A stretch of 64,000 nucleotides of DNA from Klebsiella pneumoniae (GCA_945861065.1 CAMASI010000012.1:8139-72138); one strand, 5' to 3'; numbered from the stretch's first letter, positions 4,102 through 64,000 are shown. Translations and numbers: made by a program. Notes: generated by a model from the sequence alone, not told the origin.

Positions 4102-5441
4102 TGCCCGTTGTGGAAGGGATCGACCTGGACGAGATTCGGATCCGCGAAAGCGAACGCGTGGAGTGGAAGCTGCGTGCGGCGGACCCCAAGGATGTGGTGC
4201 GATCCGTCGTGGCCATAGCCAATGATCTGCACAATCTCGGCGGCGGCTACATCGTATGCGGCGCCGAGGAAGCCGAGAACGCGCATGGGTTCCAGCGGTT
4301 GGTCGCCCAAGGGCTGACGGCCCAGGAAATCAAGCGCATTCAGGACAAGGCGGTCGGAGCGCTCCGGAGTCAGGTGTCGCCACCCCTCGCCGTTCGCACG
4401 GTGGAGATCCCCGTTTCGGATCCGGAGCGGCGAATCCTCGTGATCGTGGTGGCGCAAAGCCCACAGGCACATCAATTCGAGAAAGAGTATTGGATTCGGT
4501 CGGGTCGCCAAACTCAATCGGCCAGGAACGGCGTCCTTCTTGAACTCAACCGGCAAAAGCGTGCTGGCGCATCGGTCGACCTGCGCCCTGTGCCTGGTGC
4601 CACCGTTGACGACCTCGACCTGCTTGCCGTGCGAGACTGGCTCACGCGCGCTGGCTTGTGGGACGGCGAAATCGCGGGCTGGCTCTCCCCAGGTCGGCCC
4701 GCAGGGCCGATGGCGCCATCGATGATGGTGGAGGACGCTGGCGTTGTGCGTCCGCGACTGGCCACTATGCTGTGTTTCGGTCGTATGGATTCTCCGACAT
4801 TTCAGCACCCGGGTACGGTAATGGCGCGCTTCGACGGCTTGGAGCGGTCCGCGAATGTTGCAGAACGAACGCAGTTCGGCGGCACGCTACTGTTCCAGTG
4901 CGCCGACGTGCTTCGTGCGCTCCAGACCGAATTGTACGTTCGAATCGACAAGCGCCTTCCACTGCCGAATTCGACCCGATACCCCACCTCCGCCATCCAA
5001 GAGGCCCTGGTAAACGCCTACATACATGGCGATCCGCGCACGAACACACCCATCCACGTGGACGTGTTTCCCGACAGGATTGAAATCACCTCGATTGGCG
5101 CCCCGCCTTCGGGCGTGACCCTGGACCAGGCCACGAACATTCCGCTTTCCAATCTGCGCTACCGAGGCCTCGCCTGCTTTTTCCTCGGCGTTCGCCTGGC
5201 ACAAACCCTCGGAACGGGTGTCAAACGAATGCGAGAGGCCTTGCTCGGGCGCGATCCCCACAAGCCGGAACCGACCCGACCCGACCCGCTCCCGGTCCCG
5301 CTCCCGACCCCGCTCCCGGCGTCGCCCCTGGAAGCGTCAGCGATCATTCTGGAGCTTCTTCGCCAAGGGCTACGAGCATCGCCACGACGCGATCGAACTG
5401 CTCCTTACCGGACCGATGCGTTGCGTCCTCGACAAGGTTGA
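4101..5441 (+). CDS. AlbA_2 (Schlafen-type) DNA-binding domain plus HATPase_c_4-like ATP-binding protein. The 3' end runs into the repeat element.
   Basis: ESERVEWK....VVRSVVAIANDLHNLGGGYIVCGAEE is AlbA_2-like. IQEALVNAYIHGDPRTNTPIHVDVFPDRIEITSIGAPP is HATPase_c_4-like. The ATG at 4101 overlaps the upstream stop (TGATG). After about 5246 the reading frame is low-complexity P-rich sequence belonging to the repeat. Confidence 0.65.
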   Translation: MPVVEGIDLDEIRIRESERVEWKLRAADPKDVVRSVVAIANDLHNLGGGYIVCGAEEAENAHGFQRLVAQGLTAQEIKRIQDKAVGALRSQVSPPLAVRTVEIPVSDPERRILVIVVAQSPQAHQFEKEYWIRSGRQTQSARNGVLLELNRQKRAGASVDLRPVPGATVDDLDLLAVRDWLTRAGLWDGEIAGWLSPGRPAGPMAPSMMVEDAGVVRPRLATMLCFGRMDSPTFQHPGTVMARFDGLERSANVAERTQFGGTLLFQCADVLRALQTELYVRIDKRLPLPNSTRYPTSAIQEALVNAYIHGDPRTNTPIHVDVFPDRIEITSIGAPPSGVTLDQATNIPLSNLRYRGLACFFLGVRLAQTLGTGVKRMREALLGRDPHKPEPTRPDPLPVPLPTPLPASPLEASAIILELLRQGLRASPRRDRTAPYRTDALRPRQG

Positions 5442-5782
5442 GGCGCCGGCACACATCGAGGATCGCCGCGCACTCAGTGGCGGAGCCCGATGCCGACAGG
5501 TAGTACCGCCTCTTGTCGCCGGGCGAGTACTTCCCCGCGCCTTCTGCGATTTTGAGTACGATCGACAAGGAGGCGCGTGACAGCTGATCACCGATGTGCG
5601 AGCGCCCTCGAGGCAACCGCTCAACGACGCCGTTGGCGAGTACCAGGAAGTCCAAGGCGACGGCGTACACATCGAGCCTCTCATGGTCGAACGGCATCGC
5701 TGCCTCGGGTCGGGAGGGGGATCGGGATCGGGATCGGGTGCGGGCAGGAGTATCGCGGAGCGGCTTTCGATCATCGCGCCCC
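5246..5782. repeat. Copy 1 of a roughly 0.5 kb repeat element. The inverted partner is at 55079-55540.
   Basis: Base-by-base comparison shows that the reverse complement of 5246-5782 matches 55079-55540. The differences are scattered mismatches, a 61-bp gap in copy 2 and length differences in the P-rich tract. The element contains (GATCGG)n and CCGACC-type simple sequence at its ends. Confidence 0.9.
5344..5697 (-). CDS. Four-helix-bundle protein (23S rRNA intervening-sequence protein / Avd-like family)
   Basis: MPFDHERLDVYAVALDF...IGDQLSRASLSIVLKIAEGAGKYSPGDKRRYYLSASGSATECAAILDVC matches the hallmark of this family. The start was chosen at the family-typical N-terminus. Confidence 0.85.
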   Translation of the reverse strand: MPFDHERLDVYAVALDFLVLANGVVERLPRGRSHIGDQLSRASLSIVLKIAEGAGKYSPGDKRRYYLSASGSATECAAILDVCRRLNLVEDATHRSGKEQFDRVVAMLVALGEEAPE

Positions 5783-49321: not shown

Positions 49322-50512
49322 TCAATCTTGCCTGAGGGTTACACCGTCGGCCCAAGAATAGAAAACGTCGGGAAGCGCCATCGCAACCCAGCCCGTACCT
49401 CCCTGATCGCGTGCCAAGGCCCACGATTCGAAACTCTCGGCCCTCAGGTAGGTGGGGTTAGGCCCGTAGTCCGATGGGACGCCCAGGAGCGAGTCGAATC
49501 CGAAGAAGTCTAGCTTCTCGTCGAAATTGTCATCGCGGTAGGCGAATTGCCAGAAAATCGCACGACCCATGCCCGGTAAACCGTAATAATAATATCCAAA
49601 GGAGTCGGGATGAGGATAGGAGAGCGGCACGACGACATCCTGCGGGCTCAAAGCCTCGTCGTAGGCTACGTCGCCGGCATCGCGCCCCGGGTGGTAGAGG
49701 TCGGCAGCGGGTAGCATGGCCACACGCGTCTCTTCGACAAAGGGCCCCGAGTAGAAGTCCGGCACATGGACGATGAGGTCGCCCCTGTAGACGGGCAGCA
49801 TCCAGCACTCCACGACGTGTCCGACGATGTCGCCCAGGATCGGAGAAACAACCGGCGGCGCGACTGCCACCCATTGAACTTGATTCCATCCAAGGGCGTA
49901 TCCATCGACCATCATGTCGTAAGGGACGTAGCCGCCGAGCCAGGTAAAGGTCGTGTCGCCTTGGGCCGCAACGAAGGTGTCGGGAGGAGCGGCTACACCG
50001 TCCAAATCGACATCGACAAAGGCAGTCAGGCCGTAGGAGGTAATCAGGGTTCCGGGGTAGCCGGGCATCGGTTCCTGGTCGGCCAGTGCCGGCTCGGCCT
50101 CTACCGGTACTTCAAAGGGCGTGGTTCCGCCTACGAAAGCATCAGACGAGGTGACAAAGCGGGGATCGCCGAACTCGGTGGTGCTGAACCCAGCTTGCGA
50201 GACCAAACGCAATTCCACAACCAAGGTGCCCAGCGGCTCGACGCCACCCAGCGGCACCACCAGGTTTCCGCTGATGGCAGAAAAAGGTCCAGGCGACGCG
50301 GGGGTGCCGGTGTCGGTGTCGGTGTCGGTGTCGGAGTCTGAATCGGCGTCCGAGTCTGAATCCGCGTCGGAATCTGAATCGGCGTCAGAGTCTGAATCCG
50401 CGTCGGAGTCTGAATCCGCGTCGGCATCGCTGTCGCTGTCGCTGTCGGCATCACCCGCTTGAGTGGGCGGCGTCTGCTCGTCGGTCCCTGGCGGCTTTTT
50501 CCACGCATCCAC
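49322..50512 (-). CDS. Acidic (D-S/A/T)n-repeat protein. A lipoprotein signal peptide sits upstream in another frame.
   Basis: The GTG-initiated ORF has no signal peptide. The sequence MRWMAMVTVCGC (ATG at 50540) lies in the neighbouring frame, just upstream of an A5 run (50496-50500). Removing 1 nt would fuse the two. Confidence 0.55.
   Translation of the reverse strand: MDAWKKPPGTDEQTPPTQAGDADSDSDSDADADSDSDADSDSDADSDSDADSDSDADSDSDTDTDTDTGTPASPGPFSAISGNLVVPLGGVEPLGTLVVELRLVSQAGFSTTEFGDPRFVTSSDAFVGGTTPFEVPVEAEPALADQEPMPGYPGTLITSYGLTAFVDVDLDGVAAPPDTFVAAQGDTTFTWLGGYVPYDMMVDGYALGWNQVQWVAVAPPVVSPILGDIVGHVVECWMLPVYRGDLIVHVPDFYSGPFVEETRVAMLPAADLYHPGRDAGDVAYDEALSPQDVVVPLSYPHPDSFGYYYYGLPGMGRAIFWQFAYRDDNFDEKLDFFGFDSLLGVPSDYGPNPTYLRAESFESWALARDQGGTGWVAMALPDVFYSWADGVTLRQD
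50308..50452. repeat. Tandem hexamer / 18-mer simple-sequence array encoding (DT)n(DSDSDA)n
   Basis: (GTGTCG)x4, then five 18-bp units of the form AGTCTGAATC[GC]GCGTC[CG]G, then (CTGTCG)x3 after GCATCG. Confidence 0.85.
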
Positions 50513-50709
50513 AAACGGTGACCATGGCCATCCAGCGCATCAGGCCTCCAAGGCTGAGGATAGGGCGGACGAACGGCAAGGAGGGCCGCACACGCCACCA
50601 TGGTACACCCGCCGCGCCCCTCCCGCAACGCCCGGAGCGCTGACCGGCTCGCCATCGCAGGCGGCCCCGTAGCAGCCTTCCGAGTGTCATTGGTGCCTCC
50701 GCATCCGCG

Positions 50710-52308
50710 TCAGAAAGGCCATGGCTGCAACCACGCACCCACCGACTGAGTGTAGATGACGAGGTCGGAAAGGCCGTCTCCGTCGTAGTCGCCCGCGCGA
50801 TGCGGGACCTCCGGCGTGCGTCCCTCCGGTGAGACGTAGGTGACGTCCGCGTCGCCGGTAAGCCAGGTACCCACGAGGGGGCCTCGCCACAGAAGGACGG
50901 TGTCCCTACAGGGAACCGCGACCTCGGCAACGCCGTCCCCGTCGAGGTCCCCGACCTCGCCTAGGCTGTATTGGCCGCAAATGTTCGCCGCGATGTCAGA
51001 CGACACAGTGGCCACGGCCTCTGTGGGTGCCACGACGCCGGACAGGCTGCCGCCGAACACATAGACCGCGCCGGTTAAGGCCGCGGCCAATCCGGCGCCG
51101 ACCATGAGGTCGGAAAGGCCGTCCCCGGTGACGTCGCCCGGCGCCGCGAGGGTGATGCCAAGCGACTCGCCGGAGGCGCCTTCAATGATTGCCTGGGCGT
51201 CTGATGCGTCGAGCACGCCGGCAACGACACCGGAGAACAAGTATGCCCGGCCCTGCCCTGTGGGCGCGCCGGTCACCCATTCGTTCACCCCGTCCCCGTC
51301 GAGGTCTTGAACGATGGTCACCTGCTCGCCAAGCGAATCCGCGGCGCCGCCGTCGAACACCTGCATCGGGGCGTCGGTACGCGTTGCGGATTCAGGCAAA
51401 GGGCTCGTGAACACCACGGTGCCTCCGTCACTGTCGGATCGGCCGATGACGAGGTCCGTCAACCCGTCGCCGGTCAGGTCGCCGGGTTCGAAACTCCACG
51501 CAAAGCCCTCGTCGACCCCTTCTCCCCACAGTTGGGAATCGATCACGGCGGCATTCTGTTCTGTGAAGTCGAGGATATCCGGAACGATCGACAGCGCACC
51601 CTTGCTGGAAAAATCCGTGATGTTGGGCTGCCCGATGAACAGATCGAGAATGCCATTTCCGTCGATGTCACCGGTGCCGATGGCGCGCCCCCAGCCCAGG
51701 TGCCACCAGTCGTCGCCGTTCCACCAGGGCGTGGACGTTTCGTCGAGAAACAACCGGTCCAACCGACTCTCGTCCTCCCATCTTTTCGGAAAACCCATGA
51801 TCAGCTCGTCGCACCCATCGCCGTCCACGTCGGGCACGGGTTCGACACTGGCCGCAAAGACGGTCCCGTAGCCGGTGTGGGGGTAGATGCCGTCGCCAGT
51901 GTCGTCGGCCGAGGGGCCCTCCCACCTGGCCTCGGACGCTGCGACGATGTTCAACCAGTCCTGTTCATCGGTCTCGCTGTCGCAGTCGTCGTCGATGCCA
52001 TTGTCGGGGAGGTCGCTCCGCTCGGGGTGGACGGGCGCCGAATCGTCATCGCAGTCCAAGCCGCCCGAGGGAATCGACGTGTAGCCGTCGCCGTCATCGT
52101 CGCAGGGGCAAGCGGGCAAGCAGTTGCAGGTGGCGCCGGTTTCCACGGGTTCGTCGGTCCCGCTGCTCGCCACAGAGTCGGTAGGCCCTGTTGGCCCGTC
52201 CGTTTCGGCGGTGTCCGACACGGCGGGAGGTTCACCCGTGTCGTAGGTTGTGGCCGCGACCGGTGCGCCACCGCAGGCCGCACACAGCAGCAAACCGAGT
52301 CTCATCAT
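50710..52308 (-). CDS. FG-GAP repeat lipoprotein with an N-terminal metal-binding-type motif
   Basis: Lipobox LLLCAACGG. CDDDGDGYTS...CDDDSAPVHP....DNGIDDDCD is followed by repeated D.DGDG..D FG-GAP motifs. Confidence 0.75.
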   Translation of the reverse strand: MMRLGLLLCAACGGAPVAATTYDTGEPPAVSDTAETDGPTGPTDSVASSGTDEPVETGATCNCLPACPCDDDGDGYTSIPSGGLDCDDDSAPVHPERSDLPDNGIDDDCDSETDEQDWLNIVAASEARWEGPSADDTGDGIYPHTGYGTVFAASVEPVPDVDGDGCDELIMGFPKRWEDESRLDRLFLDETSTPWWNGDDWWHLGWGRAIGTGDIDGNGILDLFIGQPNITDFSSKGALSIVPDILDFTEQNAAVIDSQLWGEGVDEGFAWSFEPGDLTGDGLTDLVIGRSDSDGGTVVFTSPLPESATRTDAPMQVFDGGAADSLGEQVTIVQDLDGDGVNEWVTGAPTGQGRAYLFSGVVAGVLDASDAQAIIEGASGESLGITLAAPGDVTGDGLSDLMVGAGLAAALTGAVYVFGGSLSGVVAPTEAVATVSSDIAANICGQYSLGEVGDLDGDGVAEVAVPCRDTVLLWRGPLVGTWLTGDADVTYVSPEGRTPEVPHRAGDYDGDGLSDLVIYTQSVGAWLQPWPF

Positions 52309-52441
52309 GGCCTCCCGCGACCGCATCAACACCGAGCACCCGCACCGCGATGGTACCGCAATTCGGCGGCCATCGGACCATCGACGTGGATATTGGAGGA
52401 GGGCGAGGGAACATCGGGGTTAGGGACGCCAGGGAGGCCTC

Positions 52442-53509
52442 ATGTGGGGGTTGTTCGCCTGCGCCCTGGTTGCCAAACAGTGGGACGACGTGGAGGAGTT
52501 CCCGATCCTTGTGGACCCTGACTTCGTGGAGCCTGCGCCGCTGAACGGCATTCTGCGAGTATTGACGTGGAATATCAAATTCGGTGGCGGCAGGACGGAT
52601 TTCTTTTGGGACGGTTGGGGCGACGAGAACCGCATAGATTCCATGGAAGTCGAGCGCAACCTGGAGGCCGTCGCCGCGCTGCTGGCGGAAATCGACGCAG
52701 ACGTCGTCCTGCTGCAAGAAGTCGACGTGGACAGTCGCCGAACCAGCCATGTGGACGAGTCGGATTGGCTGCTCACCCACACGCCGTACAACTACGCGGC
52801 CTGGGTACCCAATTGGGATGTCAACTACGCGCCCGAGGAGGGGCTGGGTGAGGTGACGATGGGAAACGTCATCCTCGCCAAACACGAATTGACCCGCAAT
52901 ACGCGCATCGACCAACCTCAAAGCGAATCGCAATCGGCACTGGTGAACTGGTTCTACCTGCATCGCGCGATTCAGGTTTCCGAGGTCGTCCTGCCCGACG
53001 TCGGACCCGTAGCGTTGCTGAATGTGCACCCGGACGCATACTCGTCGGACGGCACCAAAGAACTGCATTTGGAGCAGATTTTCGACGTGGCCGCAGACTC
53101 GCCGGAGCCCCTCGTTCTCGGAGGGGACTTCAACGAGGTTCCTCCAGGCAGCCTGAAACTCAAGGACTTTGAAGACGAGGCGCCGACCCTCGCCGGAGCC
53201 GGCGTATCGGTCGTGGAATATACAGAGGAAGAGACCCTGTGGATGATGCCCTTCTTCGACACCTGGGCCACGGAGACGCCGCTTTTGACCTACCAGACAG
53301 GCAACCTCGACACGCAATCGCGGTTTTTCTCGCATTCTGTTTCGAAAGACGTGTTGTGGACGCAAAAACTAGACTACCAATTCAGTTCATTTGAGAATGC
53401 TGGGGGTTGGGTGTTGCAATTGCCAGGCGACGGCGATCCCCCGCTCGTTTCGGTCCCTATGGATTTGTCGGACCACTGCCCGGTGTTGGCCGACTGGGTG
53501 CTTCCATGA
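52442..53509 (+). CDS. Endonuclease/exonuclease/phosphatase (EEP) family protein
   Basis: LRVLTWNIKFGGG, VVLLQEVD, LLNVHPDAYS, VLGGDFNE and LSDHCPV. Confidence 0.8.
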   Translation: MWGLFACALVAKQWDDVEEFPILVDPDFVEPAPLNGILRVLTWNIKFGGGRTDFFWDGWGDENRIDSMEVERNLEAVAALLAEIDADVVLLQEVDVDSRRTSHVDESDWLLTHTPYNYAAWVPNWDVNYAPEEGLGEVTMGNVILAKHELTRNTRIDQPQSESQSALVNWFYLHRAIQVSEVVLPDVGPVALLNVHPDAYSSDGTKELHLEQIFDVAADSPEPLVLGGDFNEVPPGSLKLKDFEDEAPTLAGAGVSVVEYTEEETLWMMPFFDTWATETPLLTYQTGNLDTQSRFFSHSVSKDVLWTQKLDYQFSSFENAGGWVLQLPGDGDPPLVSVPMDLSDHCPVLADWVLP

Positions 53510-54240
53510 TCGCATTGTGGTGCATGACCGCCTTTGCCGCGGCGCCCCTGAACAACCGCGCCGGCACGCCGTTCACCTACGGTGGCGACGGGGGCAAAGT
53601 CGCATTCGGCGTATTCCAGCCGGTAGTCGTGGGGTTGACGGACACGGTGGATTTGAGCACGTCTGGCCTCGCGACCCTTGTGGCGCCCCGCGTTGAACTG
53701 AAATGGGCAGTCGCCTCAGGCGGCGACGATCGCCTGGAGGACGGGCTGGCTGTCGTCGGCGGCTTGGGCGTGCCGACCGGTGGCTTATTGCTCTTGCGCG
53801 GGCTTGTGTTCAACGAGGAGGCGGCGATTCCCGGTGCGGTCGTGATTCGCGCGGGCGCCGTGATGGGCCTGCGCAGCGGATCGGTGACCGGCGCATTGGG
53901 CGCGGAAGTCCGTGGCGCCATCGAGGGGGGTGAGGACAGCCTGCGCCCCACCGGCTTGTGGTTCCTGGACCCCATGCTCGCACCGGTCACCGAGGGCCCC
54001 GTGGCTGCGATTCGCGGGGTATTTGACGTGGGCTGGGCCGACGACAAGTTCGACCTCACCGTAGATGCGCACGTGCAGGTTGGCGGGCAGGGCACGGATG
54101 GCGTCGCGCGCATACTGGTGGCGGTCCGGCCGGCGTCGGCCTTTGCGATCGCGGCGGGCGCGGCGGGAACCGTCGAATCTGGAGATGACGGCGTAGACGC
54201 ATGGGGCGCCCCGATCGGGGACCTGCTTTTTCGATTCTAA
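53506..54240 (+). CDS. Secreted beta-rich protein, outer-membrane-barrel-like, ending in ...LLFRF
   Basis: The ATG overlaps the EEP stop (ATGA). Signal peptide MIALWCMTAFAAAP, G/A/V-rich alternating segments and a terminal aromatic residue. Confidence 0.5.
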   Translation: MIALWCMTAFAAAPLNNRAGTPFTYGGDGGKVAFGVFQPVVVGLTDTVDLSTSGLATLVAPRVELKWAVASGGDDRLEDGLAVVGGLGVPTGGLLLLRGLVFNEEAAIPGAVVIRAGAVMGLRSGSVTGALGAEVRGAIEGGEDSLRPTGLWFLDPMLAPVTEGPVAAIRGVFDVGWADDKFDLTVDAHVQVGGQGTDGVARILVAVRPASAFAIAAGAAGTVESGDDGVDAWGAPIGDLLFRF

Positions 54241-55078: not shown

Positions 55079-55540
55079 GGGGCGCGATGATCGAAAGCCG
55101 CTCCGCGATACGCCTGCCCGCACCCGATCCCGATCCCGATCCCCCTCCCGACCCGGGGCAGCGATGCCGTTCGACCATGAGAAGCTCGATGTGTACGCCG
55201 TCGCCTTGGACTTCAGCTGTCACGCGCCTCCTTGTCGATCGTACTCAATATCGAAGAAGGCGCGGGGAAGTACTCGCCCGGCGACAAGAGGCGGTACTAC
55301 CTGTCGGCATCGGGCTCCGCCACTGAGTGCGCGGCGATCCTCGATGTGTGCCGTCGCCTCAACTTCGTCCAGGACGCAACGCATCGGTCCGGAAAGGAGC
55401 AGTTCGATCGCGTCGTGGCGATGCTCGTAGCCTCGGCGAAGAAGCTCCAGAATGATCGCTGACGCTTCCAGGGGCGACGCCGGGAACGGGGTCGGGCGGG
55501 ACCGGGAGCGGGTCGGGCCCGGCTTGGGGGATCGCGCCCG
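55079..55540. repeat. Copy 2 of the roughly 0.5 kb repeat element, inverted relative to 5246-5782
   Basis: See copy 1. Both ends align, and the internal 61-bp deletion junction lies after 55214. Confidence 0.9.
55164..55462 (+). pseudogene. Four-helix-bundle (23S-IVS/Avd-like) gene disrupted by a 61-bp internal deletion
   Basis: MPFDHEKLDVYAVALDF is followed by a frame change. ..SIVLNIEEGAGKYSPGDKRRYYLSASGSATECAAILDVC continues in the +1 frame. The missing segment corresponds to LVLANGVVERLPRGRSHIGDQL of copy 1. Confidence 0.85.
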
Positions 55541-55623
55541 TCGCGAAGCCAACGCCAACAGCACCCCCCCACCCGCCGCCCCTCGCCCCACCCGGCGCAG
55601 CCCCCAGGCGGGCGGGCCCCAAC

Positions 55624-55663
55624 CCGAGGAGCCGCGTCCGAATCCGAGGAGCCGCGTCCGAAT
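55624..55663. repeat. Perfect tandem duplication of a 20-bp unit
   Basis: CCGAGGAGCCGCGTCCGAAT occurs twice back to back. Confidence 0.9.
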
Positions 55664-55970
55664 CGTCCTCCGCCCCCCAGCGTGTACTGAAGCGATTCTC
55701 AGGTCGATCATCCAGCCATCCACTTCCGGCGCCGCCTGAACTGTCGCAATCTTTCATCCAAATGCCACCACCTTGGTTACCCGCCCCGTTTTCGTCAGGA
55801 AAGACCACCATGAGCAGGTCGGAGTCCGCCTCTCGACACATCACGGTCCCATGGTCTTCGATAAATCCGCGACCAAACCCGCGGCCACCGCTTCGGGAAC
55901 CGGCGGATCACCCCAAAGCGAGGAGGATGCGGCGGAGCGCTGGTCCACCCCATGTGAGCGCCCCGTTCGC

Positions 55971-56150
55971 TTCAATGGGCCCGGCGTCGGACGCAGGGAA
56001 CAATTTGGCGCTGTCCCCTCGGCAGACGGCTACACGGAGCTCTAATTGAGCCCGGCGTCGGACACCGGGAATAATTTCACGGTGGAGCCGCGCAGGGTGG
56101 AGCGGCGCACGGTGGCTTCAATGGGGCCCGGCGTCGGACGGCAAAGGGGA
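55971..56150. repeat. Three imperfect direct repeats of about 35 bp with 71- and 76-bp periodicity
   Basis: The invariant core GCCCGGCGTCGGAC lies at 55979, 56050 and 56126. Units 1 and 3 share TTCAATGGG(G)CCCGGCGTCGGACG, and units 1 and 2 share ...GGGAA[CT]AATTT. On the minus strand the units end in CATTGAAGC. Confidence 0.6.
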
Positions 56151-56313
56151 CGAGCACGAAGCCGTCTTCCAACACCTCCGTGGCGCGGGAGTCGAAAGGC
56201 GAGGCATTCGACATCTCCGCGCTCACGCCTTCCACCGGGTGACAGGGGTGGGTCGGGTGTGGGCGCCTACCGTCCGTGGCGGCCCGCCGCCATACACCTG
56301 TTATACTACAAGC

Positions 56314-56571
56314 ATGAGTAAGCGCCTCCAGGTGGTCATGGACGAACACGAGTGGGCCGAAATCGAGGCCGTCGCCCGTCGTCACGGGCAAACGATGTCC
56401 GACTGGGTTCGCACGATCCTGCGCGCCGCCCGGCGGGACGAGCCGACACGCGCGGTGGACCGCAAGCTCGCGGCGTTGCGGGCTGCGATGCAATTCGACG
56501 GGCCCACCGCGGACATCGACCAGATGCTGGCCCAAATCGAGTCCGGGTACCCGACCGAGTTGCCGCGGTGA
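56314..56571 (+). CDS. Ribbon-helix-helix (CopG/VapB-like) antitoxin
   Basis: MSKRLQVVMDEHEWAEIEAVARRHGQTMSDWVRTILR has the RHH beta-alpha-alpha pattern. Confidence 0.75.
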   Translation: MSKRLQVVMDEHEWAEIEAVARRHGQTMSDWVRTILRAARRDEPTRAVDRKLAALRAAMQFDGPTADIDQMLAQIESGYPTELPR

Positions 56572-56969
56572 CGGTCCTCGTCGACTCGAACGTTCCGATG
56601 TACTTGGTGGGTGCGCCACACCCTCACAAGATCGACGCTCACCGCCTGGTCCAGCGGTGTATCGCCAACGGGGATCGGCTGGTGACTGACGTCGAGGTGC
56701 TCCAGGAGATCCTCCATCGCTACGTGGCGATCCAGCGCCGGGACATGATCCAGCCGGCCTTCGACGCGGTGCTGGGAATCGTTGATGACATTCTGGCCCT
56801 CGACGCCGCAGACCTCGACGCAGCCAAGGGGATCTCGCTCGGCGCGACGCGGCTCTCCGCCCGCGACGCGGTGCACGTCGCGCTGATGCGGCGACACGCG
56901 ATCGGAACGATCATGAGCTTCGACGCTGACTTCGATGTGGTGCCCGGGATCACCAGGTTGTCCCGGTAG
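56568..56969 (+). CDS. vapC: PIN-domain toxin (VapC-like)
   Basis: The GTG start overlaps the antitoxin stop (GTGA). VLVDSNVPMYL.....TDVEVLQEILHRY....SARDAVHVALM....IMSFDADFD. Confidence 0.8.
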   Translation: MTVLVDSNVPMYLVGAPHPHKIDAHRLVQRCIANGDRLVTDVEVLQEILHRYVAIQRRDMIQPAFDAVLGIVDDILALDAADLDAAKGISLGATRLSARDAVHVALMRRHAIGTIMSFDADFDVVPGITRLSR

Positions 56970-57024
56970 GTGCGTGCCACCCGTCCGTGGGGGGCGTTGT
57001 GGGAGCTAGTTCTCTCATACCTTG

Positions 57025-57500
57025 TCAAGTAGAAGGTGAGCGTAGGTCGCGCAGCCGTTGCTGCGCCCGCCCGGTGTCGTTCGTCAGCTGCTCGTGGCCA
57101 CTTGAGAGGATGTCAAGCTGGGCGCGGAGCTCCGAGTCCGGCGCCCAGGGCGAAGACTGGTGAGCCGCGCTCAGCCCCATCAACGCAAGCGTTTGGCTGT
57201 CCCGCGCATCGTCCTTTGCCCCAGAAGACTGGAGGGACTCCCCAAACCTCTTGGCCTGCTTCGGATCCACAACGTGCACGACCGCGTCGGCCGAATGGAA
57301 GAGCCGCGCCCAGCCCTCCCCGCCCGCCTCGATCATGACGTGGACATCGTGCCCCGGATGCCGTGCCTGGACCCGGGCGACCAGCTCCCGCACGCTGGAA
57401 AACTCGGCTCCGCCCCCTTGATACCGCGCACCGGACAGCCTTCCGCCGTCGTTGCACACACCACGCTGCTGGCGCTCCAGTCCGCTCCCAAGTATGCTTT
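57025..57500 (-). mobile_element. IS110-family transposase remnant (N-terminal DEDD domain only, degenerate)
   Basis: ...VHVMIEAGGEGWARLFHSADAVVHVVDPKQAKRFGESLQSSGAKDDARDSQTLALMG...LRAQLDILSSGHEQLTNDTGRAQQRLRDL matches the IS110 N-terminal domain. The first catalytic-Asp region is degenerate (GSGL instead of GIDL). The C-terminal Transposase_20 domain is missing. Confidence 0.65.
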
Positions 57501-57668
57501 CATCGTTCCTCCTTCTGGTGGAGCACGCTGCTGCGGACCGCTCGGGCAAGCCTATGAGATTCCTCGTGTCACCGCGGATCAAGGCGTCACTAAGGCCCTC
57601 TGGGTCCCCAGCAGCACCCACTCCGAAGTCCGGATGAGGCACTCGAGGTGCTGGCTCCTTGGCCGTAA

Positions 57669-58232
57669 GTGGGTGCTTGCATGCTGAGAGAAGCTAGCCT
57701 TCAGCGGTACACCCGGGCACCGCCGGACGGGACGTCAGTAGGCTCGCCGCTCGTTTACAGTCATAGACGTCACTACGGATCTGTCAAGGAAGGAATTTGC
57801 CGGCGAAGACGGCCATGTGAGGGTTTGACCATCGAGATTGGCCTGGGGCCGGCGGATGGATCCCCGGTCACAGCGGCGACCTTGGAGATCGGCGAGCATT
57901 CTTCGTTCTCCGGATCCGACAACCTAGGCGTGCTCGGCGACGTAGACGGCGATGGGTTCGTGGACATCGGGTACGCAGGGCGACACGACGGTTCGTTAGG
58001 CTACGGGCCCTTGGAGGGCGCGTGGGAAATCGACGAGCGCGCCGATGCGCGCCTCGTCGAGGGCCTGCCTGACTTGGCGCAGGCCTGGATGGCGGGGATC
58101 GGCAATCGAAACAGCGACGGCTACGATGACTTCGCCGTGGTACACCACGATAGCTCGTGGGATCCGACGTCGACGTACGCTCATCCACCTACGGCGGCCT
58201 TCCTTCTCGACGGGGCGTCACGCGCATGGTGA
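57669..58232 (+). pseudogene. FG-GAP repeat gene fragment (3' remnant)
   Basis: Only the distal part looks like a real protein (LGDVDGDGFVDIGYAG...GNRNSDGYDDFAVVHH). There is no signal peptide or credible start. It lies directly next to the IS110 remnant. Confidence 0.4.
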
Positions 58233-58270
58233 GGGCTTAGGGTTAGGACCCCGCAGGGGTCCGCCCATGC

Positions 58271-58296
58271 CTTGGTTCTTGGTTCTTGGTTCTTGG
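58271..58296. repeat. Heptanucleotide tandem repeat (CTTGGTT) x3 plus CTTGG, inside the 5' end of the giant lipoprotein gene
   Basis: The sequence reads directly as ATGC-CTTGGTT-CTTGGTT-CTTGGTT-CTTGG-CGCG. Confidence 0.95.
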
Positions 58297-61200
58297 CGCG
58301 TGGCTGGCGTGTTCGGGTGGCGGCGACGGGACGGATGCCAGCGGCGGTGCCGAGCTGTGCGGCAACGGCGTGGACGACGATGGCAACGGGCTGACTGACT
58401 GCGCCGACACCGTGTGCAGCGAGGACTGCGCCGAACAGTGCGGAAATCAGATGGACGATGACGCGGATGGTGCCATCGACTGCGTCGACAGCGATTGTGA
58501 CGGCTCCTGCACCGAGACCTGCACCGACGCACGGGACAACGATGGCGACGGTGCCATCGACTGTGCCGACAACGATTGCGACGGAGATTGTCCGGAGGAC
58601 TGTATCGACGGGCGGGACAACGACCTCGACGGCGAAGTGGACTGCGCCGACGGCGACTGCGACGGATCCTGCGATGAATTGTGTGACGACGACCACGACA
58701 ATGATGGCGACGGCGCGACCGACTGCGGCGACGGAGATTGCGCCTCCCTGTGCGACGCCGATGGCGACGGCGCAATTGCCCTTTCGCGGGGCGGCGACGA
58801 CTGCAATGACGGGGACGGCGCGGTGCACCCTGGCGCCATCGAAGTGTGCAACACGATCGACGACGACTGCGACGATCTCGTCGATGACGCCGATCCCGAC
58901 GTCGACCTGAGCACGGGGACGGCGGTGTGGGCCGACGTGGATGGCGACGACTACGGCGGGGACCCGGTGGGCTCATTCTGCGAACCCCCGCCTTTTACCA
59001 CGCCCGTTGACGGTGACTGTGACGACGAGGACCCCGCCGTCAATCCACTGGGCGAGGAGACGTGCAACGACCTGGACGACGACTGCGACGGCCTGTTCGA
59101 CGATTCGGACCCCGATGTGGACCTCGGCACGGCCTTCAACTGGTTCACGGACTTCGACCTCGACGGCTACGGCCAGGTCTTTGCCGGACGCGCGTGCGCT
59201 GCACCGCCGAACGGGACGACCATTTCTGGGGATTGCAACGACATCGACCCGGCCATTCATCCGGCGGCAACGGAGATGTGCAATTCTGGCGTGGACGACG
59301 ACTGCGACCTCGTGGCAGACGACGCAGACCCGAGCCTCGACGCCAGCTCTGCGACTGTGTGGTTCAGCGACGGTGACGACGATGGCTACGGCGTCGTCTT
59401 TGTGGACCTGAGCTGCACGGCCCCCGTGGGTTCTGCGGGCGAGCCGGGCGACTGCAACGACGCTGATGAGGGCATCCACCCCGGTGCCGTCGAGTTGTGC
59501 AATGGCAAGTTGGACGACGACTGCGACGGGCTCGCCGACGACGCCGACCCTGGCCTCGACCTGTTGTCCGCCACGATCTGGTACGTCGATGGGGATGACG
59601 ACGGCTACGGTGGCGACATCGCGGATCTGTCGTGCATCGCACCCGTGAATGCCATCGAGGACGGCACCGACTGCGACGACGCGGACGACGCGATTCATCC
59701 TGGTGCGACCGAGGTGTGCAATGACGACGTCGATGACGACTGCAACGGGCTCGTGGACGATTCGGATCCGAACCTGAACCTGGCGACCCGAACCGCCTGG
59801 TACCGGGACCTCGATGCCGACGGCTACGGGGGTGTTGCCTTGGTGGCCACAGCCTGTACGGCGCCGGTCAATACTGCCGACAACAACGACGACTGCAACG
59901 ATGGCAACGCCGCGATCAGCCCCGGCGACGTTGAAATCTGCAATAGCAATACCGACGACGACTGCGACGGGCTACTCGACATGCTCGACCCGAGCATTGA
60001 CCTGCTCACCGCGACCACTTCGTGGGATGACGACGATCGAGACGGCTTCGGAAACCCAAACGCCATCCACGTGTTGTGTTCGCTCCCGCTCGGCGCCTCG
60101 CTCAACGATGACGACTGCGACGACAGCGACCGCGACGTCAATCCAGACGCGACCGAGATCTGCAACGCGAACGCGGACGATGACTGCGACGGACTCGCGG
60201 ATGATGCGGACGCGTCCACGGATCTGTCCACGGGTATCGATTGGTTCACGGACCTCGACAACGACAACTTTGGCGACCCGCTGGCGCCTGACGCTTCTTG
60301 TGTGCTGCCGGGAATTGGGTCGCTCAACGACGACGACTGCGACGACAGCGACGCTTCCATCAGCCCGGCCGACCCGGAGGCCTGCGAAGGCTTCGACAAT
60401 GACTGCGACGCCCTCATCGACGACGCGGATCCAGGCGTTTCTGTGGCGCTGCGCGACTGGTTCCCGGATGCCGACGGCGATCTGCTCGGCGACGCAACTG
60501 GGCTCGTCGAAGCCTGTCTGGCGCCCCTCGGTTTCGTTGCGGATGACACGGATTGCGACGATCTGGACGCCTTCGTGCTCGGACCCTTTCCCTGGGCCAA
60601 GGACCTCGACGTGGACGGCTTCGGCAACCCGATCGGTATCGCCTGCACGGCCCCGTTGGTGGGGTGGGTCCCGGTCTCGGCGACCCTCGATTGCGACGAC
60701 AGCGATCCCGAGGTGTCGCCGGTTGGCGTCGAAGTGTGCAATGGCGGCGTAGACGACGACTGCGATGGGTTGGAAGACGACGCCGACCCGTCGGTGGACC
60801 TGACAGATGGAATCACGTTCTGGCGCGATGTGGACGAAGACCGATTTGGCGACATCGACGGCGCCACAGGCTTGGTGTGCGCGCTGTCGGCGGGCATCGC
60901 CGGCAACCCCGACGACTGCGATGACGGCGACGCGGGCGTGAATCCCGATGCCGTCGAGATTTGCAACGGGGGCGTCGACGACAATTGTGACGGTCTCGCC
61001 GATGATGACGACCCTTCTGTGATTGGCATGCGCGATTGGTTCGAGGACGCTGACTCCGACGGGTTGGGCAATGACGCGGTCTCGGTGCTCGCCTGCGCGG
61101 CACCGGTGGGCTTCGTGAGCGGGAGCACCGACTGCGACGATACCGACGCCGCCGTAGGCGCGCCGAGCTTCTGGGGCGTGGATGCGGACGCCGATGGCTT

Positions 61201-61681
61201 TGGTTTCGCTCCGGTGGTCGCTTGTGAGGGGGGTCTCGGCGCCGTTGCGCTCGTGAGTACCGACGTGGACTGCGACGATTCCGATCCACTGACGAATCCC
61301 GATGGCGTGGACGTGTGCGGCGACGGCCTCGATCAGGATTGCAGCGGCGCCGACAAGAGCTGCGTCGCCGCGCTCATCGGTCGATTCCGAATCACCGACG
61401 GGCCGAGTTGGACGGGTGACCCAGACACGTTCACCTGCCTCGAAGCCTGTGCGGAGGTCTTCGGCGGACTCTCTACGGACTACGCGTGCTCGACCGACGG
61501 CGCGGCTGTGGACAACCAGTCCTTCGTGGATGGGTGGGGCGATGACACGTTCTGCACGTCGCCGAAGCCGGAGACCTTCAAGAAGAACACGCACTATGAT
61601 TGCGGCGCCGTAGGCTGTTCCTACTCGGCCTACGTGACCGATCACGGCTGCACGACCTTCAACTACTGCTTCCTGCTGTAA
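58286..61681 (+). CDS. Giant lipoprotein: N-terminal DNDGDG..DC.D.DC modules, then about 13 'putative metal-binding motif' (MopE-like) units and a Cys-rich C-terminal domain
   Basis: The lipobox LACSGG is reached only from a TTG at 58286. Repeats have the form W..D.DGDGYG.....C..P......DCDD.D..I.PGA.E.CN..DDDCDG..DD.DP. Confidence 0.75.
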
Positions 61682-61692
61682 TCGGAGCCGCC

Positions 61693-63742
61693 ATGATCCC
61701 CCTGCTCTTCACGCTCGCGGCCTGCGGGTTGCTGCCCGGCGGCGAGGGTTCCGACGACTCGGAGACCACAGCGGCCATGCCGTCGGGAGAGGTGTGCGGC
61801 AACGGCGTCGACGACAATGCCAACATGCTGTCGGACTGTGCCGATCCCGCGTGTGCCTCGGTGTGTTCCGAGATCTGCAGCGATGGCTTTGACAACGACG
61901 GCGACGGTGCGTCCGATTGCAACGACAGCTCGTGTGACGGCGATTGCCCCGAGGACTGCTACGACGGTCGGGACAACGACGGCGATGGCGATGTGGACTG
62001 CAACGACGGCAGTTGTGACGGTTCCTGCGAGGAGGCGTGCGGCGACGACCGGGACAACGATGGCGACGGCTTCGTGGATTGCCTGGACCCGAGTTGCGAC
62101 GGGAGCTGCCCAGAAGACTGCGTCGACGGACGGGACAACGACGGCGACGCGTTGATCGACTGCCTGGACGACCAGTGCAACGCAACCTGCGACGTAGACG
62201 ACGATGGGTTCGCGTCCGCTGACCTTGGCGGGGACGACTGCGACGACGGCAACGCCGCGGTGAACCCCGGCGCGTTGGAATGGTGCAACGGTTTCGACGA
62301 CGACTGCGACTTCGCCGTAGACGACCTCGACCCGAGCCTGGACCCGGCGTCCACCACGGATTGGTATAACGACGCGGATGGTGACGGTTGGGGATCCATT
62401 CTCATCGACCGTTCGTGCATCCCGCCAGCCGGGCTTGTCGCAACCCAACCCGGCGATTGCGGACCCAACCCTCGACATCAGTTCGCTGATCCCGTGGTAC
62501 ACCGACGCCGATGGCGATGGATTCGGTGGGGCAGCCCTGCTGGCCTTCGCCTGCGACCAGCCCGACGGCGGTGCGGCCGACAGCGACGACTGCGACGACT
62601 CGGACCCCGACATCAGTCCGTTGGGTCTTGAGGTCTGCAATGGTGTGGACGATGATTGCGATGAAGACATTGACGACGACGACAGCTCTTTGGACCCTCT
62701 TTCCCTGCTGGTCTGGGCGGTAGACGATGATGGCGACGGCTTCGGGGACCCGGATCTGACCTTGTTGGCCTGCGACCAGCCCGTGGGCGCCGTGGGCAAC
62801 GTCGACGATTGTGACGACGGCAATCCGGCGCTTGGCCTGCTCGAACCTTGGGTCAAGGACAACGACGGCGACGGGTTCGGCGCAGGCGTCAGCATCGTCT
62901 CCTGCGCGAAGCCGGGCGGCGGCTATGTGCGCCTCAGCCTGGGGGAGGACTGCGACGATACAAACGTCGGCATCTCACCCGTGGACGTGGAGGTGTGCGG
63001 GGACGGCATGGACCAGGATTGTTCCGGTGCGGACCTGATCTGCCCGCTTTCTTGGCCGGGCAACTACGCCGCCGACATCGTCTTTGACGAATACCTCGAC
63101 AACATTCCGGTTGCGATGGCCTGGGACGGCGTGTCCCTGTGGACCGTTACGCAGACGGGTGTGGATTCCAGACATATGGCGGAGTACCTTCCCGATGGGA
63201 CCAGCGTCGCAATCTATACGCTCGCCACGGATTTCCGTGGCCTCGCCTCCTTCGTCGACGGAGACACCCCCCTCTTTGCACGGGTGAAGTCGCTTCCCGG
63301 ACTGCTTGAGCTTCACCCCGTACTCCACACGTTCGCGGCCGACGCAACGCTTGTGGGCGGCACGCTCGACCCGGATTCCAACGTGGTGTGGGACGATACG
63401 ACCGGCGAATATCTGGCGCTCGACGATGATGGAATCGTCGACCGATGGGACGCTTCGGGCGCCTGGGTGGGCAGCGTCTCGCTCGCGGGCTTCGGGACCC
63501 TGTTCTCGGAGTCCAATTTCCCGCAGGACCGTCGCCTTGCCGTGGCCGAAGGAACGCTGTTGACCTACTCGATGGGCACGCTCTCCGCTTGGGATCGCAG
63601 TGGGACCCGGCTGGACACGACCAACCTACTCGCGGCTGGCGTGCTTGCCGACTCGCATTGGAGCTTCTCCTTTGCCGCCTCCCGGGTGTGGGTCATCGAT
63701 GACGCCGATGCCAATTGGCGGGCCTACCCCATCGCCTATTGA
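61693..63742 (+). pseudogene. Paralogous metal-binding-motif lipoprotein gene with a +1 frame break near 62460
   Basis: GGAG plus ATG at 61693, with lipobox FTLAAC. The family-consistent sequence runs in frame 1 up to ...ATQPGDC (62458-62460) and resumes in frame 2 at [23 protein letters not shown] (from about 62459). The C-terminal roughly 230 aa form a non-repeat beta-rich domain. Confidence 0.6.
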
Positions 63743-64000
63743 CCGGGGTCCGCGTAGCCAAGCGCTTCGAGCGCCGCCTTCAGTTCTGGCTCCAGCGGCG
63801 TGCCGGCGCGGGTTTGCCGGCCCACTTCGTGGTCGTCGATGAGGCGTTGGAGCCGACCTGCGACGTCGGGGTTCGGAGCCGCGATGGCCGGTAGTGTTGT
63901 CAAGAATCTCCACGAACATTCCTCGGCCAGGGTAGGGCGGAGGACCGGTCCAGAAGTCGCCGCTACCGCCGTCCTCGTAGGCGTCGTTGAATGTGACGCA
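63736..64000 (-). CDS. 3' end of a minus-strand gene running off the window
   Basis: The frame is open from the window edge to a TAG at 63736-63738. The tail reads ...AIAAPNPDVAGRLQRLIDDHEVGRQTRAGTPLEPELKAALEALGYADPGQ. A different frame looks coding upstream of about 63885. Confidence 0.3.
   Translation of the reverse strand, partial: ASHSTTPTRTAVAATSGPVLRPTLAEECSWRFLTTLPAIAAPNPDVAGRLQRLIDDHEVGRQTRAGTPLEPELKAALEALGYADPGQ

Follow-up and report, generated by a model that had tools for sequence, protein, structure and literature searches.

The 64,000-nucleotide window analysed here (contig CAMASI010000012.1, nucleotides 8139-72138) carries a gene for a giant, acidic, cysteine-rich lipoprotein, whose start codon is followed, after a single nucleotide, by a short tract of CTTGGTT heptanucleotides. 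This tract varies by whole units between populations and toggles the reading frame. Two full units (2.7 in all) make up the tract of the common allele, and three (3.7) that of the window. Slipped-strand gain of one unit is well supported as the origin of the window allele, as is its consequence, a frameshift that separates the start codon and signal peptide from the body of the gene. The allele is best read as an ordinary loss of function, by slipped-strand mispairing, in a giant lipoprotein gene with MopE repeats, and a probability of about 0.7 is assigned to this reading. The proposed course of events is as follows. (i) The normal allele carries two full CTTGGTT units and CTTGG immediately after ATG-C, and encodes a lipoprotein of 1135 amino acids (aa). 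(ii) In the lineage of lake-water run X1, from one lake, slipped-strand mispairing would have added one 7-bp unit. (iii) The frame of the ATG now ends after 43 residues, and for the body only a TTG or a GTG remains as start, so that it would lack any usable export signal. (iv) No lipoprotein would be made from this +7 allele. (v) Such slippage would be a low-rate event in an accessory gene, dispensable or counter-selected, within a decaying islet, and not the action of a tuned, reversible, high-frequency switch.

The tract and its reading frames

The start region is made up, in order, of GGACCCC, GCA, GGGGTCC and GCCC, the ATG, a C, three copies of CTTGGTT, a trailing CTTGG, and CGCG TGG CTG GCG TGT. 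The ATG occupies 58267-58269 on the plus strand and is separated by the C at 58270 from the tract (58271-58296, plus strand), which codes for the hydrophobic core of the signal peptide. The three perfect units span 58271-58291, and the trailing CTTGG ends at 58296; Tandem Repeats Finder describes the tract as period 7, 3.7 copies and 100% matches. In the window allele the ATG and the gene body are in different frames, and the ATG frame is closed after 43 residues by a TGA at 58396-58398 on the same strand. The body (58286-61681, plus strand, in the list of open reading frames, ORFs) lies in the next frame relative to the ATG and amounts to 1131 aa when counted from a TTG. In-frame TAGs at 58238 and 58244 close this long ORF upstream, where the sole start is the TTG at 58286. 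Initiation there gives MVLGAWLAC, with only eight residues (MVLGAWLA) before the lipobox cysteine. The body is open to translation only from this TTG or from a GTG at 58370. An earlier note on this DNA had reported most of this arrangement (the ATG out of frame, the stop at 58398, the TTG as the only start, the eight residues before the cysteine and the TAG at 58238), and each of these points proved correct when re-read.

When one unit is removed in silico, the ATG opens a product of 1135 aa. Among tracts modelled with zero to seven units, only those with two and five full units are in frame, and every other number yields a product of 36-51 aa. The non-triplet unit is thus so placed that, in the modelled products, a change of unit number switches translation of the lipoprotein gene.

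A short hairpin, GGACCCC-GCA-GGGGTCC (58246-58262, plus strand), lies between an upstream gene fragment and the ATG; it was read directly and is present in the RNA fold. Within its 3' arm is a Shine-Dalgarno-like AGGGG (58255-58259), separated from the ATG by 7 nt. The TTG at 58286 has no similar purine-rich motif in front of it, and the GTG at 58370 no Shine-Dalgarno-like one. The hairpin and the T-rich tract were also considered as a terminator or riboswitch-like element. This was rejected, since no consensus terminator or promoter was found at the hairpin region and the RNA fold is no better than that of shuffled sequences (z 0.55).

Natural variation of unit number

The window derives from a metagenome of lake water. 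Ten public runs (X1-X10) from five studies cover the tract, and their Logan contigs were aligned to the region. X2 and X3 belong to study P2; X4, X5, X7 and the metatranscriptome X8 to P3; X6 to P4; and X10 to P5. All runs were examined as contigs, which drop rare variants, so that only substantial minor alleles can be excluded. Among the ten, X1 alone has 3.7 units, and it matches the window exactly. Eight runs (X2-X8 and X10) lack exactly 7 bp at 58271 and so have 2.7 units; over 58100-58500 they show no other difference from the window in X2-X7 and X10, and one in the RNA run X8. The remaining run, X9, probably carries 2.7 units as well: its contig is short and breaks off within the tract in a way consistent with that number. 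An independent 55-kb contig in ENA, L002, likewise has 2.7 units and reads ATGCCTTGGTTCTTGGTTCTTGGCGCG. It encodes an intact protein of 1135 aa, P0123, so that the exact in-frame product is on record. The one-unit-shorter allele predicted by the earlier note is therefore real and predominant, and the comparison of related populations that the note proposed gives a difference: 3.7 units in X1 against 2.7 in X2-X8, X10 and L002.

The 90% protein cluster of the gene has three members: the 1131-aa form from the TTG (Logan), the 1103-aa P0124 and the 1135-aa P0123. P0124, from NCBI and ENA, is the window-type allele annotated from the GTG at 58370, presumably in the annotation of the metagenome-assembled genome (MAG) itself; a look-up of its contig returned no record. 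A variable-gap DNA pattern anchored in the flanks of the tract was used to look for other unit numbers. It returned no match in genome contigs, and in metagenome contigs a single, unrelated chance match, L001.

Chance and artefact

Base composition does not account for the tract. Simulation under a first-order Markov model (100 replicates) gives an expectation of 0.02 perfect period-7 tracts of at least 19 bp per 64 kb, and for the 14-mer formed by two units, CTTGGTTCTTGGTT, the expected number in the window is 0.01. Perfect non-triplet tracts, whatever their unit, number only four in the window.

The extra unit could in principle be an assembly or sequencing error, absent from the organism, as the earlier note had allowed. 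It is seen in one sample only, X1, from which the window itself probably came, since X1 contains 100% of the words sampled from the window. The separate Logan assembly of X1 also gives 3.7 units, at a word depth of 34 and with no difference over 6.3 kb. Because X1 is probably the window's own sample, this agreement shows independence of assembler, not of reads. Logan contigs overlap by 30 bases, more than the 26 bp of the tract, which suggests that an assembler would not be able to invent a unit. A clean 7-bp insertion, moreover, is not an Illumina error type. An artefact is accordingly rated as extremely improbable.

The lipoprotein and its leader

The body of the protein contains 11 putative metal-binding motifs of the MopE type, a repeated 30-residue Cys/Asp motif that scores well above the Pfam gathering threshold (PF11617, E 2e-55, 185 bits against a cut-off of 27). 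Acidic double-disulfide repeats at the N-terminus give a weak match to NCBIfam NF033662, with 28 bits, below the cut-off of 41. In the protein search the named homologues stem from MAGs of Myxococcota. The 'myxobacterial' label of the earlier note was not confirmed by an FtsH search, the best matches of which are 51-60% identical and spread over many phyla.

Relatives of the protein open with short hydrophobic leaders ending in cysteine: MPWLMLWGLIAC in P0004, MMRLLTLWVAVAC in P0017 and MRLALVAITLLAC in P0048. With the tract in frame (ON), the lipobox is W-L-A-C at residues 10-13, and the corresponding leaders of homologues end in LIAC, VAC, LLAC or LAAC. Typical lipoproteins have a positively charged n-region and a lipobox cysteine at about residue 15-35 (the PROSITE PS51257 rule). 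The restored ON leader has 12 residues, none of them K or R, with the cysteine at residue 13, and so falls short both in charge and in length. The leaders of P0004 and of a downstream paralogue, B, do likewise, which makes this a family trait. It is thus a prediction that the ON form is exported. The leaders of homologues and paralogue match, and AGGGG stands 7 nt upstream of the ATG with nothing comparable before the TTG; for these reasons the ATG at 58267 is, as judged from sequence, the genuine start codon of the gene.

A homologue of 1115 aa with the same MPW leader occurs on contigs L003-L011 (gene at 6001-9348 of L003), from the same ENA sample as L002. Its neighbourhood is different and conserved, with FG-GAP, MopE and VWA genes. 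Either the same organism carries it as a paralogue, or it belongs to a relative that co-occurs.

The window allele might nonetheless yield a functional protein, by initiation at the TTG or GTG or by ribosomal frameshifting on the repeat. The ORF is intact for 1131 codons from the TTG, and public annotation has a 1103-aa protein from the GTG. The TTG start, however, leaves the truncated leader described above, and the GTG leaves no residue at all before the lipobox cysteine; neither codon is preceded by a Shine-Dalgarno-like motif. All homologues have an N-terminal hydrophobic lipoprotein leader, and a repeat protein so rich in cysteines of the disulfide type would be unlikely to fold in the cytoplasm. 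Retained function is thus considered very unlikely.

A second knockout of the same gene

A segment of 3823 bp (58665-62487, plus strand) is missing in other populations, where the joint 58664->62488 lies inside long contigs. The deletion is flanked by 5-bp direct repeats, GATCC, at 58665-58669 and 62488-62492. Its joint is found in X4, X5, X6, X7 and the RNA run X8. X2 is mixed, with the long form at 12.6x and the short form at 8.6x, and X3 also contains both, mainly the long. The deletion takes away most of the giant gene together with the beginning of paralogue B, and it is out of frame: joined to an in-frame tract it gives a 208-aa product that turns to nonsense after ...GDCDGS, and an exact look-up found no such product on record. 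An in-frame fusion of the two genes (A/B) was considered as the outcome of the deletion and rejected, since the frame shifts and the product ends after 208 aa. Short joints with sides of 20-21 nt in the repeat region were set aside as cross-matches from paralogues of other organisms.

The 3.8-kb deletion is a second, independent and irreversible knockout of the gene. Only study P2 and the ENA contig show the gene intact; the +7 allele occurs in one lake and the deletion in two studies.

Strain tree and switching rate

The history of the X1 lineage bears directly on how often the tract changes. Between 24001 and 44000, runs X2, X4 and X6 share 32 substitutions relative to X1 and no indel, and between 44001 and 64000 they share 11 more. 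The X1 branch thus carries about 43 substitutions in 40 kb, or ~1.1e-3 substitutions per site. The tract difference is distributed exactly as these X1-specific substitutions are, so that a single event on the X1 branch explains it. Outside X1 at least three haplotypes can be told apart, every one with 2.7 units: that of X2 and L002 (an A insertion at 57398, 57667G and 59770A), that of X3 (59770A and 60388C), and that of X4-X7, which carries the 3823-bp deletion. In no run does the assembly graph break, or a minor contig appear, at the tract; contigs pass through it uninterrupted. Contigs of X2 do break, by comparison, where the two forms of the 3.8-kb indel coexist, with ends at 58669 and 62517 and overlaps of 30 nt. 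Only two alleles, 2.7 and 3.7 units, have been seen.

Phase variation is defined by a high rate and by reversibility (review PMC11868660). Tetranucleotide simple sequence repeats (SSRs) change at ~1e-4 per generation, against a basal rate of ~1e-9 (PMC2651432). Were the tract to change at the former rate, many changes over the tree and mixing within samples would be expected. On rate and reversibility the indirect evidence leans against a switch, given the single event, the constancy elsewhere, the few units, the unconserved repeat and the irreversible knockout.

Unit number and conservation of the repeat

Published screens set thresholds on unit number. PhasomeIt requires at least five units of longer motifs (PMC6321876), and the most permissive cut-off in a survey of Haemophilus influenzae was at least three units (PMC2651432). 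At the next lower threshold, two units, strain Rd has 126 heptanucleotide tracts (PMC2651432). The 2.7-unit allele falls below the three-unit threshold, which the 3.7 units of the window do reach. Known heptanucleotide switches have 13-38 units (PMC2651432, PMC8262952).

The repeat is not conserved. P0004, the nearest homologue to share the MPW start, begins with ATGCCCTGGTTGATGCTCTGG and has no repeat on any of nine independent contigs, and the leader of paralogue B has none either. No orthologue was found in other species: beyond the gene's own 90% cluster, the protein search returned only relatives from the repeat family, at 30-61% identity.

Switch or mutation

In the opa genes of Neisseria, CTCTT pentanucleotide repeats lie in the coding region of the leader peptide, are present in many units, and switch in both directions at high measured rates in clonal cultures. 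The tract described here resembles them in that a non-triplet repeat codes for the signal-peptide core and a change of unit number moves the start in or out of frame. It differs in having 2.7-3.7 units and two alleles, with no switching within populations seen in contigs. The (ATCTTTC)n tracts of H. influenzae hmw1A and hmw2A lie in the promoter or 5' untranslated region, where their 13-38 units grade transcription (PMC8262952, PMC2651432). They share with the present tract a 7-nt unit tied to a gene for a large surface protein, but the latter is intragenic, translational and very short. For Helicobacter pylori oipA, one account (PMC10564699) describes a slipped-strand switch of CT dinucleotides in the 5' signal-peptide region that sets an outer-membrane protein ON or OFF, with strains fixed in either status and with documented switching. 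The likeness lies in a slipped-strand frameshift in the 5' coding region that sets expression. The oipA repeat, however, is a dinucleotide with more units in a host-adapted pathogen, and here a low-copy heptamer is found in an uncultured lake bacterium. The tract also resembles the ordinary slippage indels at short direct repeats from which polymorphic pseudogenes arise: one unit of a direct repeat of two to three copies is duplicated in one lineage, and other indels and a microhomology-flanked deletion occur in the same non-essential region. The only departure from such indels is the suggestive position of the repeat.

Several points weigh against reading the allele as an ordinary mutation. 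The tract sits where classical translational switches sit, in the part of a surface-protein gene that codes for the signal peptide; it is not expected from composition; and the populations that differ by exactly one unit are otherwise 99.9% identical. Minority alleles within a sample may be hidden by the way contigs are built, and strong selection for the ON state could mask frequent OFF mutants. Two independent knockouts that dominate different lakes could reflect selection against expression, which is the pressure that favours contingency loci.

Several observations (a non-triplet unit directly behind the start codon, a frame-toggling polymorphism, an improbable tract, an independent knockout of the gene elsewhere that could mean recurrent selection for loss, and 3.7 units, which reach the most permissive threshold) speak for a true contingency locus. 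The tract would then be a slipped-strand switch that is reversible and under selection, ON with 2.7 or 5.7 units and otherwise OFF, by which the population could turn the lipoprotein on and off, for example under pressure from phages or grazers. Such a locus is possible but unlikely. One event on a long branch suffices for the two alleles, and 2.7 units are fixed in nine of the ten runs (X9 being the probable case), which include at least three haplotypes. The assembly graph is unsplit at the tract in every run at contig level, the unit number is far below that of proven heptanucleotide switches, and a homologue lacks the repeat. An irreversible deletion, moreover, dominates where the tract is ON, which is unexpected if a cheap and reversible OFF state was at hand. 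A stronger form of the proposal is rather doubtful: the two-to-three-unit repeat would be a genuine reversible switch in a free-living, uncultured lake bacterium, and the 3.8-kb deletion would express the same recurrent selection to shed the protein, for instance as a target of phages or grazers.

The earlier note had proposed a slipped-strand phase-variation device. What stands is the slippage site, which is real and differs between near-identical populations. The high-rate, reversible device is not supported, in view of the two alleles, the single event, the few units and the 3823-bp deletion. An ordinary loss-of-function mutation by slippage is therefore the preferred reading.

Surroundings of the gene

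The neighbourhood of the lipoprotein gene contains several broken genes. Paralogue B (61600-63742, plus strand) is frame-broken on three-frame translation, with Pfam MopE matches on both pieces. One frame covers its lipoprotein N-terminus and repeats as far as about 62460, and the gene continues in the next frame to 63742. At the break (62440-62475) about half a repeat module is missing, and reading resumes with DPTLDISS.... This break is unchanged in the long-form contig of X2, which has no gaps over 58640-62517. Upstream lie the N-terminal stump of an IS110 transposase (57025-57642, minus strand; Pfam PF01548, E 1.3e-14) and a short FG-GAP-like gene fragment (57669-58232, plus strand) with a weak FG-GAP_3 match.

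Over 55213-64000, L002 differs from the window by eight substitutions and three indels, two of which are 1-nt changes in short runs: A4 against A5 at 57398, within the IS110 stump, and one more T behind CTT at 55526. Indels in this interval thus comprise the two 1-nt changes, the 7-bp change and the 3823-bp deletion, against none in the 31 kb of ordinary genes to the left (24001-55000). The pattern suggests a locus that is decaying or being shed.

To the left of 55213 the neighbourhood of L002 differs from that of the window and contains DnaB, L9, S6 and Pth. The point at which the two part is marked by a repeated element, present twice in the window (55080-55363 and 5280-5781) at 96-97% identity and again at 2751-3249 of L002, where it overlaps a gene with a Pfam match to 23S_rRNA_IVP (four-helix bundle). 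Short contigs at 55088-55363 reach word depths of about 340-2500 in every metagenome, and the element is accordingly very widespread.

At 50451-50540 (minus strand), a second acidic-repeat lipoprotein gene has a leader that starts at ATG 50540 with MRWMAMVTVCGC... and is offset by 1 nt from its body at a run of five A (50497-50501). This offset is identical in X1, X2, X4 and X6, whose contigs cover 50395-54191 with no gaps. It is fixed, unlike the 7-bp tract, and marks either a pseudogene or something else.

Significance

If high-rate switching were to hold true, SSR contingency loci would extend to free-living freshwater bacteria and to far lower unit numbers, and current 'phasome' cut-offs would miss such loci. 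If the allele is instead an ordinary slippage mutation, the annotated 'protein' of 1103 or 1131 aa is a frameshifted allele, and the real product would be the 1135-aa lipoprotein of the other samples. The gene would then be a clean, documented example of a giant surface protein that was knocked out twice in nature, independently and in different lakes, and would be useful for the population genomics of accessory surface proteins.

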